Shown here one piece after another: positions 51,319 to 63,474 of a stretch of DNA of 64,000 nt. The stretch lies in the IMG/VR virus record IMGVR_UViG_3300020469_004451, positions 1 to 64,000 of that record, one strand, 5' to 3'. Each line of letters starts with the position of its first letter. The stretch's first letter is position 1. The DNA is from a virus. The notes under the pieces were generated by a model, which was not told the origin of the DNA, did no database searches, and saw nothing but the letters and a program-made list of their open reading frames with translations. The translations under genes were made by a program, and so were the position numbers.

Positions 51319-51902
51319 TCAAAATAGAAGATTTACAATTGGTGAGAGAGGTAAAGGAGGCGAAAAGTGAAGACGCTTTGCTTGAGCTTGTCGAAAGGCA
51401 CTCAGGTCTTTTCTATAAAATAATTTCAAAAAACTTGCCGTTTTCAAAAAATTCTTGGGATGTTGAAGAATTAGTCCAAAGAAAAGAACATTTGTTTTAC
51501 GAGGCTATTGAAACGTTTGATCCAGATAGGAATATAAAGTTTCACACTTGGCTGGCAAACAAAACTAAGTATCTTTGTCTAAGTCAAAGGTCTAAATTAA
51601 GAGACGAACCAGATTTTTGTGAGTTTGATGAGGGATTTGGTGGAGAAACGCATCTTTCTCCAGATGCCTATCTCTCAAAAAAAGAAGAGGTAGAGAGAAT
51701 TTTGTTTTTGGCTTCTAAAAGATGCACACCAAAAGCACTTGAGATTTTTGAGAAAAAATATTTTGGTGGCGATAACAGGGCGGGTTTATCCTTTACTGAA
51801 ATTGCAAAAGAAATGGAGATTAGTCCTCAAGCGGTTCAAGCTAGTCATGCCAAAACGTTAAAAGTAATAAAGAAAGCTATTTTAAATGAAAGTGTTATTT
51901 GA
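51315..51902 (+). CDS. RNA polymerase sigma-70 family factor (regions 2 and 4)
   Basis: DALLELVERHSGL, FDPDRNIKFHTW, SFTEIAKEMEISPQAV. Confidence 0.85.
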   Translation: MIKIEDLQLVREVKEAKSEDALLELVERHSGLFYKIISKNLPFSKNSWDVEELVQRKEHLFYEAIETFDPDRNIKFHTWLANKTKYLCLSQRSKLRDEPDFCEFDEGFGGETHLSPDAYLSKKEEVERILFLASKRCTPKALEIFEKKYFGGDNRAGLSFTEIAKEMEISPQAVQASHAKTLKVIKKAILNESVI

Positions 51903-52974
51903 TGGTCCAATCAACAATTTATCTTTAGGGAACGTTTCTGTAAATTTTCTTAGAGAGCTATTAAAAAAAGACGCAGTTTCAGCTATTTTTCCGGTTGGAG
52001 AAAAGGGGGATTTTGAATCTTTCGATTCCTTAGATGAATTGGTAAGGGGGCAGATAACATCACTTTCACATGGGCGTTTTAAATTTTTTGACCACAAGTT
52101 ACCAACAATCAAGTGCTGGCATATTAATGGTTCTGAAAAGAAGCTTACAAACGATCAATATCTATATACTTTTTATGAGGTAGATTCACCTACAGTAGAG
52201 GAGTATAACATTTTAAAAAATCAGACTTGGACTTTCTTCTCTTCTTCAGAGGCTGCCGATTCTTTTAAAAAAATAGGTCTAGAAAACTGTTCTTACTTGC
52301 CTCTTGGTTTCGATCCAGACTTCTACAAAAAAGATGTAGAAAATGTTGATGGAAAGCCGATCCAATTTGGATTGATTGGTAAGTTTGAAAAAAGAAAAAA
52401 TACAGAGCGAATCATAAAACTGTGGCTTGAAAGGTTTGGTAACAATCCAGATTATCAACTCAACTGCCTAGTTAATAATCCCTTTTTCCAAAAAGAAACA
52501 TATCAAAATTTGATAGGTAATATTCTTGGAGGTAAAAATTGGAACAATATTAATTTTCTGCCTCACTTGTCAAAAAACTCTCAAGTAAATGATTTGATGA
52601 ATTTTATTGATATTGATCTGAGCGGTCTGTCAAATGGCGAGGGATGGGGCTTACCAGCATTCAACTCCACCGCTTTAGGAAAGTGGAGTGTAGTTTCTAA
52701 TTGTTCTTCTCATAAAGATTGGGCCACACAAGAGAACTCTATTTTGGTAGAACCCGAAGGAAAACAAGAATGTTACGACGAAGTGTTTTTCAAGAAAGGT
52801 CATCCCTTCAATCAAGGAAGTTATTACAAAATCTCTGACGAAGCGATAATTGACGGTATCGAAAGAGCGTTGAAAAAAGTAGGGGAAAATAATATAATTG
52901 GAGAGAACCTTAGAGAAGATTTTACTTACGAAAAAACTGTAAGTGGGATTCTACAAAAAATAGAAGAATCTTAA
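51886..52974 (+). CDS. GT-B glycosyltransferase (GT4-like)
   Basis: LPLGFD, GKFEKRKN, GEGWGLP. Confidence 0.8.
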   Translation: MKVLFDGPINNLSLGNVSVNFLRELLKKDAVSAIFPVGEKGDFESFDSLDELVRGQITSLSHGRFKFFDHKLPTIKCWHINGSEKKLTNDQYLYTFYEVDSPTVEEYNILKNQTWTFFSSSEAADSFKKIGLENCSYLPLGFDPDFYKKDVENVDGKPIQFGLIGKFEKRKNTERIIKLWLERFGNNPDYQLNCLVNNPFFQKETYQNLIGNILGGKNWNNINFLPHLSKNSQVNDLMNFIDIDLSGLSNGEGWGLPAFNSTALGKWSVVSNCSSHKDWATQENSILVEPEGKQECYDEVFFKKGHPFNQGSYYKISDEAIIDGIERALKKVGENNIIGENLREDFTYEKTVSGILQKIEES

Positions 52975-52975
52975 T

Positions 52976-53419
52976 ATGCCAATTTACGTTTACAAAAATG
53001 AAGAAACAGGTGGTTTCTATGAAGTTATCCAAAAGATGACAGACGATCATGTTTTCTTCGATCCAGAGACGGGAGTTGAATGCAAAAGGGTTTTTACTGT
53101 TCCTAATGCTAGTGTAGATTCTTTTTCAAACATAAATCCTTTTGACATTAAGGAAGCTACTCAAAAAACTGCGGGGTTTAAAGGAAGCATAGGCGATCTT
53201 TGGGATATATCTAAAGACCTCTCTCAAAAAAGAGAAGATAAATTAGGTCACGAAGACCCGCACAAGCGCAAAGTATTCAAAGAATACGAAAAAAATCGTG
53301 GAGTAAAACACTTTTATGACAAACAATCCGTAAGAAGGGTTGGTGGTATAGCTTCTGTAGATTACAATGCTTCTACTCCAAATGTAAAGCTAGACAAGGA
53401 CGGTAGCACTAAGGATTAA
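52976..53419 (+). CDS. FmdB-like regulatory protein (degenerate zinc ribbon)
   Basis: MPIYVY..CKRVFTVP. Confidence 0.55.
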   Translation: MPIYVYKNEETGGFYEVIQKMTDDHVFFDPETGVECKRVFTVPNASVDSFSNINPFDIKEATQKTAGFKGSIGDLWDISKDLSQKREDKLGHEDPHKRKVFKEYEKNRGVKHFYDKQSVRRVGGIASVDYNASTPNVKLDKDGSTKD

Positions 53420-53431
53420 AATTCTTTACTA

Positions 53432-61895: not shown

Positions 61896-61910
61896 ATACA
61901 TCTAAAAATT

Positions 61911-62678
61911 ATGATTGATAAAAAACTTGCTATAGTTTTATACACCTCAACGAAAGGACACTTTGATTATAAAGATTGCTATAAGCATACAGTAGCTAGA
62001 TTGCAAGAACAGTTCAGCTTGTTTTCCTTCTTTTACAAAATCGCTCACATAAAAGTTTCAGAAGGCGAAGAAGATTTGGCTGATGAGATGGAATCATATT
62101 TAAAGGTTCATGGTTTTAATGTTTTAAAAACTCAAGGAAACTGGAAGCACGACTGTAATAATAATTCTCATGCTAAGGAATATTACAAAGATATGCTCAC
62201 TGCTTTATCTGATAAAAAATTACATGAATTTCCGTATGTCATGTGTATTGAGGATGATTGGCTTCTTTCTTTTCCTAATCAGTCAGGAGAACATTGGTGT
62301 AGAAAAGGTGTGGATCTTCTAGATCAAAATTTTGATAAGCTTTGTATTAGAATTAATAATAAAAAAGATACCTGTCTTGATGAAGCTAGTAGCGTTAAAG
62401 ATGAAGATATATATATGCAAAATTTAGGCTATACTCCTTGGGGACCGACATATACTTTTCAACCTACCATTGTTAGAACTAAAGAATGGTATCATTCTGT
62501 TAGATTAATAAACAATAATTCAGAAATACTAGACTCTCAACATTGCGAAATTGTATCTGGAAAAACTTTAAAGAACTTTACTGACGATTTGTGTCCATTC
62601 TTATTTTTTAATCCAAATAAAGTTCATGCAGAACATATAGGAGAAGAAAGTTGGTTAAATAAACAAAAGAAAATTTAA
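61911..62678 (+). CDS. GT-A-like glycosyltransferase
   Basis: CIEDDW DxD-like motif, FQP, HIG. Confidence 0.6.
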   Translation: MIDKKLAIVLYTSTKGHFDYKDCYKHTVARLQEQFSLFSFFYKIAHIKVSEGEEDLADEMESYLKVHGFNVLKTQGNWKHDCNNNSHAKEYYKDMLTALSDKKLHEFPYVMCIEDDWLLSFPNQSGEHWCRKGVDLLDQNFDKLCIRINNKKDTCLDEASSVKDEDIYMQNLGYTPWGPTYTFQPTIVRTKEWYHSVRLINNNSEILDSQHCEIVSGKTLKNFTDDLCPFLFFNPNKVHAEHIGEESWLNKQKKI

Positions 62679-62694
62679 CAACTTTAATTAAAAA

Positions 62695-63474
62695 ATGAAA
62701 ATAGGCTTATTATGTAATTTTTACGGGTTTCCAGAATATACTCATCAAGTATTGGAACCTTGGCTACACAGGGAGGATGTTGTAATAGCTGCCTCTTCCT
62801 TTAAATATCCAGAGCTTTGGGATAAAAATGATACTGAAACATCAAAACAATTGTTGGAAATACCAGTAAATTTTTTAGCTTATGGAGATCAAGCAAACGA
62901 TTCTTTTTCTAGAAATGCCCCATTAAGATATTTAAAAGAAAGAAATGTTGATCTAATTTGGATACTAGATCAAGATGAGTTTTATTCAGCAAAAGAAATT
63001 GAAGATACCATACAACTTGTTAATAATTCAAAAGATAATGTTGTATTCAGAATAGAATTTAAAAATTGTGTTGGTGATAAAAATCATTATATAGAAGGTT
63101 TTAACCCACCAAGAATATTTAGAACCAAGCCAAGTGAAAGATACTTGATGCACGAATTTTATTACGAAAACGATATAAATTATGTAGACGTTGTTCGTAA
63201 GGAATTAATTACTTACAAGTCCTTTTCTGAAAAAAATATATCAAAAGATATATGCAATCCTATCCATTATAGTTGGTGCGGAACCGAAGAGTATTTAAAA
63301 GCAAAGATTGAATATCAGAAAAAGAGATATGGAGGAATATGTTCTTACAAATGGGAAGACGATAAATTACAATTTAATCAATCTTATTACGAAATGATTA
63401 AAGAAGAACCTCCAGAACTTCTTGAAATAGAAAAATGCGAACCAGATTTTCCAGCATACGAACAAACAAGATGA
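62695..63474 (+). CDS. GT2-like glycosyltransferase
   Basis: RN..WILDQDEFY..PRIFR..HYSW. Confidence 0.7.
   Translation: MKIGLLCNFYGFPEYTHQVLEPWLHREDVVIAASSFKYPELWDKNDTETSKQLLEIPVNFLAYGDQANDSFSRNAPLRYLKERNVDLIWILDQDEFYSAKEIEDTIQLVNNSKDNVVFRIEFKNCVGDKNHYIEGFNPPRIFRTKPSERYLMHEFYYENDINYVDVVRKELITYKSFSEKNISKDICNPIHYSWCGTEEYLKAKIEYQKKRYGGICSYKWEDDKLQFNQSYYEMIKEEPPELLEIEKCEPDFPAYEQTR

Follow-up and report, generated by a model that had tools for sequence, protein, structure and literature searches.

The stretch of viral DNA analysed here (64,000 nucleotides, positions 1 to 64,000 of the IMG/VR virus record IMGVR_UViG_3300020469_004451; hereafter the window) is part of a large tailed phage without a cultured relative, and it carries, at positions 51,886 to 63,474, a block of mostly glycosyltransferase (GT) genes, inside which another gene encodes a fibre-like protein unusually rich in glycines preceded by serine or threonine ([ST]G). 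Four further proteins of the same phage, encoded outside the block, share this enrichment. It had been predicted from the sequence that both features belong to a single system, in which a sugar, possibly heptose, primes the [ST]G sites and the remaining GTs extend them to give a glycan-coated virion, a mechanism that is partly supported by the analysis presented here.

Relatives of this phage were found in metagenomes only. No isolated relative was matched by megablast, by tblastn with the capsid or by tblastn with distant proteins; the capsid gene and the GT region had no match among 50,697 phage records; the terminase (16736..18628) shares about 26% identity with Bacillus and cyanophage terminases; and, among 20 proteins from the structural region, the 1904-aa tape measure is the sole one named by PHROGs. 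Comparisons were therefore made with a complete relative of 146,905 bp that has terminal repeats and 200 open reading frames (ORFs), designated G002; with a relative, L001, that is 89-97% identical to the window in the flanking genes; with four further complete genomes of a wider group (G006, G007, G008 and G009), whose terminases are 49-51% identical; with 80 loci surveyed out of at least 578 IMG/VR matches to the family of gene 56291; and, for the [ST]G content of orthologues, with 15 related loci.

A split GT9-type enzyme and its accessory cassette

The region had been described as one GT cluster. It proved to be two-layered, with a core and an accessory cassette, and to include Zn-ribbon, fibre-like and SSB-like (single-stranded DNA-binding protein-like) genes as well; among the members proposed for it, a GT4, a GT9-type pair, an HldD-type epimerase and a GT2 were confirmed, but three genes (60204, 61101 and 61911) had no family match.

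The core comprises three genes on the plus strand. The first (51886..52974) encodes a GT4-type enzyme of the GT-B class, with 33 bits to PF00534 (Glycos_transf_1) and a match to phrog_2170, and its product is 46-61% identical in the relatives. The product of the second (56291..58180) begins with a GT-B domain of GT4-like type (about residues 1-430), in which C267, C270, C285 and C288 form an invariant pair of Cys4 knuckles; a linker connects this domain to a shortened N-lobe of the GT9 type (residues 531-629, nt 57881-58177). Residues 531-588 match positions 1-58 of the heptosyltransferase II model, the best PDB match of the family profile at profile residues 464-524 is the GT9 chain 3tov, and the N-lobe holds an invariant Asp542 in an S-x-G-D motif; homologues that match this protein over its full length, with 44-60% identity, number at least 578 in IMG/VR. 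In the product of the third gene (58183..59349), residues 1-186 are a donor-binding GT9 C-lobe and residues 187-388 a C-terminal domain of alpha/beta type. Identities of the three products to those of G002 are 56%, 47% and 31%, respectively, with 57% for the terminase and 52% for the capsid, and all three genes occur in each of the four complete genomes of the wider group.

On its AlphaFold2 (AF2) model, which has a predicted local distance difference test score (pLDDT) of 93.7 and no visible barrel, the 58183 product is at residues 1-186 the C-lobe of the GT9 family. VIA Z scores of this lobe were 17.8 for WaaF, 17.3 for a Veillonella GT9, 17.0 for WaaC and 15.9 for TibC, compared with 11.2 for the next GT-B family, and Foldseek ranks 1-12 were taken by heptosyltransferases only. 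At the sequence level, PF01075 (GT9) matched with 41.4 bits against a cut-off of 22, a profile search matched WaaF (E 3e-4) and WaaC, with TibC absent from the match list, and D108 and H113 are nearly invariant in a D-S-G-P-x-H-type motif.

A GT9 N-lobe with its Gly-Asp motif is thus present, but it is shortened and resides on a separate polypeptide. The 56291 stop codon is followed after 2 nt by the start of 58183, which is read in the -1 frame, and the corresponding junction in G002 is a 14-nt overlap. Homologues of both genes were called in 80 of 80 loci, that of 58183 lying downstream wherever coordinates are given, and a fused form (at least 680 aa) was sought and not found. Since the two-ORF form is conserved, with another junction in G002 and no fusion, it is unlikely that a sequencing error or a programmed frameshift joins the two genes. 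The heptosyltransferase unit that had been anticipated from 56291 and 58183 is accordingly borne out by fold, profile and its occurrence in all the surveyed loci, in the form of a conserved split enzyme. Its donor would be ADP-heptose, to judge from the fold and from the adjacent accessory HldD-like gene.

That accessory gene (55416..56267, plus strand) encodes an HldD-type short-chain dehydrogenase/reductase (SDR) resembling ADP-glyceromanno-heptose 6-epimerase. It scores 242.2 bits with TIGR02197, below the equivalog cut-off of 274.6, and 87 bits with GalE, and falls about 30 aa short of the model in length. Relatives at 60-82% identity carry the JGI name HldD, while the best matches in reference genomes reach just 24-40% and hence offer no pointer to the host; a homologue is absent from L001, from G002 and from 79 of the 80 loci. 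Downstream of the split pair lie a GT2 gene of the GT-A class (59355..60110, plus strand; PF00535 at 25.8 bits, above the cut-off), which has a homologue in L004 only among the relatives compared, and four small GT-A-like candidates on the same strand (60204, 61101, 61911 and 62695, together 60204..63474). The last of these has a weak GT2 match (E 0.004), and the other three are GT-A-like by eye alone, through DxD/EDD-type motifs; the five small GT-A-like genes are missing from L001 and patchy among the relatives. The cassette of G002 (85999-90471; L025:5999-10471) is a different one, situated between a RecA-like gene and a class II ribonucleotide reductase (RNR) gene and made up of a GDP-mannose 4,6-dehydratase, a Methyltransf_24 gene, two genes without assigned family, a 61101 homologue and a CAP59-like mannosyltransferase. 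In G006 (151 kb), four SDR-type genes at 36596, 48598, 63711 and 73550, with 21-27% sequence identity to 55416 of the window, suggest a sugar-nucleotide metabolism that reaches past the core GT block.

Serine/threonine-glycine excess in distal tail and fibre proteins

The [ST]G enrichment was evaluated as an observed-to-expected ratio (O/E) corrected for composition, with significance obtained by residue shuffling. All the reading frames named in the prediction were found in place. The four hand counts on which the enrichment had first been noticed were exact on recount, as were the control counts of 6 [ST]G pairs in the terminase and 8 in the RNR large subunit, and after correction the enrichment persists, at 2.0-3.2 in five proteins (shuffle p 0.0016 to <5e-5). 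One is a small protein encoded between the putative tail tube and tail chaperone genes (30236..30733, plus strand), in which 9 of 20 glycines are preceded by S/T (O/E 2.75; p 0.0013). Three are distal tail proteins encoded on the plus strand: 39739..41313, overlooked in the original prediction (16 of 38; p 0.0016); 41306..42697, which has a ConA/LamG-type jelly-roll core at about residues 100-245 (24 of 44; O/E 2.9); and 42694..43404 (12 of 23; O/E 3.16; p 1e-4). The fifth is the fibre-like protein encoded on the opposite strand inside the GT block (53663..54715, minus strand), already singled out as an S/T-G-rich gene within the cluster; 21 of its 37 glycines follow S/T, its O/E is 2.68, and its observed [ST]G count was matched by none of the shuffles. 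The observation is therefore confirmed for the window. Pooled over the five proteins, O/E is 3.66 for TG and 1.94 for SG, against 1.01 and 1.17 in the other 55 window proteins, and the [ST]G ratio of the remaining proteins is around 1.1. Tail neighbours are flat or depleted (38207, 0.22; 43361, 0.87; tape measure, 1.0), and enrichment was looked for and not seen in capsid, portal, tail tube and tape measure. In the rich proteins [ST]G is encoded by 24 different hexanucleotides (codon pairs), which rules out a DNA-level motif as the cause and indicates that selection acts at the protein level.

The excess extends across the relatives. All 77 of 77 homologues of 41306, at 28-98% identity, have an O/E of 1.9-3.9, and 14 of its 24 sites are conserved in position at 80% or more, with S and T interchangeable. 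Pooled over the 15 loci, O/E of the orthologues is 2.32 for 41306, 2.86 for 42694, 2.15 for 53663 (whose orthologues range in length from 258 to 915 aa), 2.31 for 30236 and 1.76 for 39739, whereas 38207 stands at 0.54, and the tape measure and GT orthologues are close to 1.1. The orthologues of 39739 span an O/E of 0.17-2.81 and hold from 1 to 26 sites per protein. In G002 the top four of 200 ORFs by enrichment are orthologues or positional equivalents of 42694, 41306, 30236 and 53663, the positional equivalent of 42694 ranking first and the 30236 orthologue third. A profile search over 1.84 billion representatives returned 205 relatives, of which the distant members of 500-1000 aa are richer still (pooled O/E 2.84); for these, alignment-based scans met no conserved stretch that could be used to locate the encoding contigs, and scans with single proteins gave no match. 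It was also observed that in distant relatives of 560-640 aa (P0135-P0220) a 41306-type protein is apparently fused to a 42694-type C-terminal part, as judged from the alignment consensus, the common motif being NG..L.SG.DY. In other phages, the [ST]G-rich proteins that adjoin the GT pair belong to at least six BLAST families, and their domains (BppL_N, Phage-tail_3, Phage_min_tail, Laminin_G_3, C-type lectin and fascin-like) indicate proteins of distal tail and receptor-binding type.

Such an excess is not a general property of fibre and baseplate proteins, an explanation that was rejected for T4, where 23 capsid, tail, baseplate and fibre proteins were without excess (O/E 0-2.3; minimum p 0.064), and nearly so for five whole control phages, in which 1 of 467 ORFs reached p<1e-3, as against 10 of 685 in six genomes with the GT pair (Fisher p 0.034). 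G006, G007 and G008, in which the GT4 and the split pair are present, have one or two strongly enriched ORFs each. Two features were seen in one of the controls, Synechococcus phage S-EIVl (KJ410740.1, 21-731 and 8075-9343): a 236-aa ORF, perhaps a collagen-like repeat of the form G-x-[ST], in which 31 of 37 glycines are preceded by S/T, and a GT group 1 gene with weak kinship to the GT4-like domain of 56291 (E 3.8e-13).

Whether the dipeptide behaves as a unit in evolution was assessed by the Mantel-Haenszel odds ratio for joint retention or loss of S/T and G, which was 34 in the 41306 family and 25.5 in the 39739 orthologues, compared with 1.1-6.1 for control dipeptides such as [DN]G and G[ST]; shared ancestry inflates all of these ratios, so that only the contrast between [ST]G and the controls carries weight. 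At [DN]G positions the glycine is retained when the first residue changes, whereas at [ST]G it is not. Furthermore, in the 39739 orthologues that are poor in sites both residues are swapped for ES, EQ, EV, LA and similar pairs, which implies that the glycine is no requirement of the fold there. Sequence comparison thus supports the view that the [ST]G dipeptide is an evolutionary unit of a sequon-like kind. In structural terms, the AF2 model of 41306 (pLDDT 78) has a lectin-like fold according to Foldseek; its sites are confined to residues 17-83 and 225-434, the C-terminal beta-rich region being modelled with lower confidence, and by eye 15 of the 24 lie within two residues of a strand end, as about 58% of positions do by chance.

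Promoters and flanking genes

The hexamer GTGTAA occurs 30 times in the window, on both strands, and 15 of these occurrences, including those at 30220, 32477, 26520 and 19173, lie 12-59 nt upstream of gene starts. The genes so preceded include, besides the fibre gene 53663 (at 59 nt), the structural genes 26537, 28966 and 30236 (the last at 16 nt) and that of the tape measure; no GT gene is among them. The phage encodes a sigma factor at 51315..51902, for which GTGTAA may serve as a late promoter element. A sigma-70-like promoter on the plus strand (50184..50211; TTGATT, 16 nt, TATACT; a consensus match only) stands before an operon in the order dUTPase, deoxynucleoside monophosphate (dNMP)-kinase-like gene, sigma factor, GT4 (51886) and Zn-ribbon gene (52976); another, at 46696-46668, precedes 45895, and a weaker match, found by eye, precedes 54764, the first gene of an operon that runs through the split GT. 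With sigma-70-like promoters and no GTGTAA, the GTs are probably early or middle genes, a timing that is compatible with any acceptor.

Several small genes accompany the core. The Zn-ribbon protein (52976..53419, plus strand; weak PF09723 match) has homologues that adjoin the GT4 in every complete relative and in 30 of the 80 surveyed loci. The gene at 54764..55372 (plus strand), provisionally labelled SSB-like and without a Pfam match, heads the epimerase/split-GT operon, and in 72 of the 80 loci a homologue of it neighbours the GT pair. A conserved partner gene at 45895..46656 (minus strand), for which there is a weak Atlas lead to a single-strand annealing protein (SSAP/Rad52; 0.89-0.90), adjoins 58183 in relatives and has a homologue in 74 of 80 loci. 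The GT-A genes are followed immediately (window 63495-63999) by a gene for an HNH endonuclease that bears an AP2-like domain, and the promoter ahead of it matches TTGACA-17-TATAAT perfectly. Elsewhere in the window, the capsid gene region (24001-26000) has a G+C content of 46%, compared with 32-40% across the remaining phage body, and the DUF1501-type gene at 4844-6052 has homologues 42-43% identical in the distant complete relatives G006, G007 and G008, which makes it a conserved gene of the group and not a recent pickup.

Possible acceptors and relation to known systems

The reading that accounts best for the data, tentative as it is, holds that the split GT9/GT4 module O-glycosylates distal tail proteins at [ST]G. 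The core (51886, 56291 and 58183) would then be a phage glycan-assembly module active in the cytoplasm, in which the two GT9 lobes, made as translationally coupled polypeptides, must pair into one heptosyltransferase-type active site, the N-lobe of 56291 supplying the putative catalytic Asp and the C-lobe of 58183 binding the nucleotide-sugar. A swappable accessory cassette would set the sugar chemistry, with the HldD-type enzyme and five GT-A-like enzymes in the window and another set in G002. The acceptor would be the Ser/Thr hydroxyl of [ST]G in distal tail, baseplate and fibre proteins, where the glycine would open transferase access to a residue within a folded beta-rich domain, and the outcome would be glycosylated receptor-binding organelles and an uncoated capsid. 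The more specific proposal of a sequon-directed system, in which the split GT9/GT4 complex primes [ST]G on the tail organelles and lineage-specific cassettes confer a tail 'serotype', is to be taken with slightly more reserve.

In two respects this departs from what had been predicted. The [ST]G excess is present even in L001 and G002, which lack the epimerase, so that heptose from this enzyme cannot be the general primer, and its loss in relatives marks heptose epimerisation as a local variation and not the basis of a lineage-wide trait. Nor is a glycan-coated virion upheld, given the flat capsid, portal, tail tube and tape measure: the excess in exposed virion proteins is real and lineage-wide, but confined to distal-tail, fibre and receptor-binding types. 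In favour of tail glycosylation are this very specificity, which is the top genome-wide feature in G002, and the location inside the GT block of a fibre gene (53663) with a late-type GTGTAA, together with the GT9 identity and conserved split of the enzyme, the contrast with T4 and the control phages, and the unit-like evolution of the dipeptide. By analogy, TibC, a protein-modifying enzyme of GT9 type whose N-lobe is likewise reduced, offers a precedent (PMC4358343).

A number of observations weigh against it. The core GTs sit with dUTPase, dNMP-kinase-like, sigma factor, SSB-like and SSAP-like genes and not with late genes. Threonine exceeds serine at the sites, whereas TibC and Aah modify serine (PMC4358343), and the GT9 lobe scores slightly nearer to the lipopolysaccharide (LPS) enzymes than to TibC. 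G009 retains the GT4 and the split pair, yet none of its ORFs reaches p<1e-3, its two best (O/E 2.6 and 2.3) lying in the tail-distal region that separates the GT block from the gene for the tape measure; the GT core is thus more constant than the [ST]G load. (G009 also has a 5036-aa tape-measure-like ORF at 38933-54043 and is classed as a provirus by IMG/VR.) The residues flanking the sites are hydrophobic or aromatic and beta-like, with K, R, E and P depleted; the spacing of sites peaks at 9-10 and 14 residues, as a structural repeat predicts; many sites keep their exact position down to 28% identity, as a structural role would also predict; no site falls within the LamG domain of 41306; and in five smaller families the [ST]G odds ratio is 10-94 with control dipeptides too noisy for comparison. 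As to sequon or structural motif, therefore, the evidence cuts both ways.

Next in order comes the possibility, itself doubtful, that the target of the GT module is a glycolipid or polysaccharide of the host envelope, of the LPS-inner-core type, whose alteration in the course of infection could mask receptors or keep progeny off debris; [ST]G would then be a structural micro-motif in beta-rich fibre domains, without connection to the GTs. HldD, a GT4 domain and a GT9 together make up the LPS inner-core toolkit, as the hldD-waaF-waaC operon of E. coli illustrates, and WaaF and WaaC are the best matches of the C-lobe in both sequence and fold; on the other hand, the N-lobe, which binds the acceptor, differs from that of WaaC and WaaF in its reduction to about 100 aa and its fusion with another enzyme. 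Early-type promoters, a site context and 9-10-residue spacing that look structural, and the retention of the GTs in G009 despite weak enrichment would all suit an envelope target, but it would be unusual for a host-surface moron to be retained as a core gene set, at 44-60% identity, by large phages of lytic type in 578 or more contigs, and both the joint loss of S/T and G and the missing excess in T4 fibres are left unexplained.

The two other explanations rank below this one. It is improbable that the GTs attach a variable glycan to the phage DNA, a hypermodification of the kind seen in T-even phages and metavirome GT clusters, with the tail motif unrelated, even though the module is embedded among dUTPase, dNMP-kinase-like, RNR, SSB-like and SSAP-like genes and variable GT cassettes would suit an arms race with nucleases. 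Paired epimerase-GT modules are documented, and phage GT clusters, some of them epimerase-paired, place mono- to trisaccharides including heptose on 5-hydroxymethylcytosine (5hmC) (bioRxiv 10.1101/2023.12.21.572611). Known routes, however, require a hydroxylated base from a ThyA homologue or 5mYOX (PMC13326640; bioRxiv 10.1101/2023.12.21.572611), arabinosylation, for example, beginning at 5-hydroxycytosine (5hoC), the product of a ThyA homologue (PMC13326640). The thymidylate-synthase homologue family PF00303 was absent from five relatives, including the complete G002, in a search whose control responded, which weakens the DNA route; a search of the relatives with PF12851 (Tet/JBP) gave no match, but its control gave none either, and no DNA-modification family is among the Pfam families listed for G002. 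The GT-B enzymes that act on DNA resemble T4 beta-GT, BshA and MshA (bioRxiv 10.1101/2023.12.21.572611), whereas T4 beta-GT is missing from the fold-match lists of the phage lobe, and BshA and MshA score just Z 10.0 as compared with 15.9-17.8 for heptosyltransferases. Text matches to 'GT9' in the DNA-glycan preprint were to 'GT94', a contig label and not the CAZy family. Similarly improbable is that the GTs glycosylate virion proteins at other residues and that [ST]G is a turn- or bulge-type feature of a lineage-specific fibre architecture. Capsid and tail-tube subunits of mycobacteriophages are reportedly glycosylated (work attributed to Freeman et al. in 2023), which, together with the positional conservation of the 14 sites in 41306 and the clustering of sites in particular domains, would agree with this explanation. 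It is at odds with an excess common to several BLAST-unrelated families, with the dispensability of the glycine in 39739 orthologues, and with the retention of glycine at [DN]G, but not at [ST]G, when the first residue changes.

If the link between the GT module and the tail dipeptide is true, protein glycosylation in a phage would for the first time have a readable sequon and for the first time be aimed at the host-recognition apparatus instead of the capsid, and glycan-dependent adsorption, evasion of proteases or defence, and 'serotypes' would become predictable from sequence for hundreds of environmental phage genomes. Regardless of that link, there stand a hallmark block, in which homologues of 45895 and 54764 flank the conserved split pair, in at least 578 viral contigs, and, in several tail protein families unrelated to one another, a pair of residues selected jointly as a unit. 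The core GTs occur throughout a very large group of uncultured, largely marine phages.

Among known systems, phage DNA sugar clusters (T4 alpha/beta-GT and the 5hmC/5hoC biosynthetic gene clusters) share with the window multiple GTs and an epimerase among nucleotide-metabolism genes and a variable cassette, but differ in that no ThyA homologue was found in the relatives and in that the fold is of GT9 type and not of T4 beta-GT type. WaaC and WaaF (GT9, PF01075) have the same donor-binding C-lobe fold (Z 17.0-17.8; root-mean-square deviation 2.6-3.2 over 148-172 residues), and their motifs recur as D-S-G-P-x-H in 58183 and as S-x-G-D, with its invariant Asp, in 56291; moreover, an HldD-type epimerase gene lies directly upstream in the window phage, as in hldD-waaF-waaC operons. 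Unlike in these enzymes, the lobes are on two polypeptides, the N-lobe of about 100 aa is fused behind a GT4-like enzyme, the C-lobe bears an extra alpha/beta domain of 200 aa, and the genes are phage-encoded core genes.

TibC and Aah, the bacterial autotransporter heptosyltransferases (BAHTs), are cytoplasmic enzymes that modify serine in beta-helical passenger repeats, some of them S-G, and TibC, which uses Ser and not Thr, has a Cys4 iron finger in its C-lobe and an N-terminal beta-barrel (PMC4358343). The phage enzyme resembles them in its GT9-type C-lobe fold (Z 15.9) and reduced N-lobe, but 58183 has neither an N-terminal beta-barrel nor a Cys4 iron finger, with no conserved Cys in its C-lobe (1-186) in alignments A5 (11 sequences) or A7 (57), while the Cys4 of 56291 is in another, GT4-like domain; a dodecamer is unsupported for 58183, and threonine dominates the phage sites. 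Given the serine specificity of TibC and the absence of BAHT hallmarks, the phage enzyme is probably not a member of the TibC family.

Virion glycosylation in mycobacteriophages and chloroviruses is likewise carried out by virus-encoded cytoplasmic GTs on structural proteins, and the G002 cassette, with its GDP-mannose dehydratase, methyltransferase and GT-A genes, resembles the chlorovirus toolkit. The targets there are the major capsid and tail-tube proteins, whereas here the excess is in distal tail and fibre proteins only, and we know of no [ST]G-type sequon in either mycobacteriophages or chloroviruses. Finally, a GT-B active site split over two genes, as in the window phage, has a counterpart in Alg13/Alg14, where one such site is formed from separately encoded N- and C-lobes; the phage pair differs in belonging to another GT family and in having as its N-lobe the tail of another complete glycosyltransferase.

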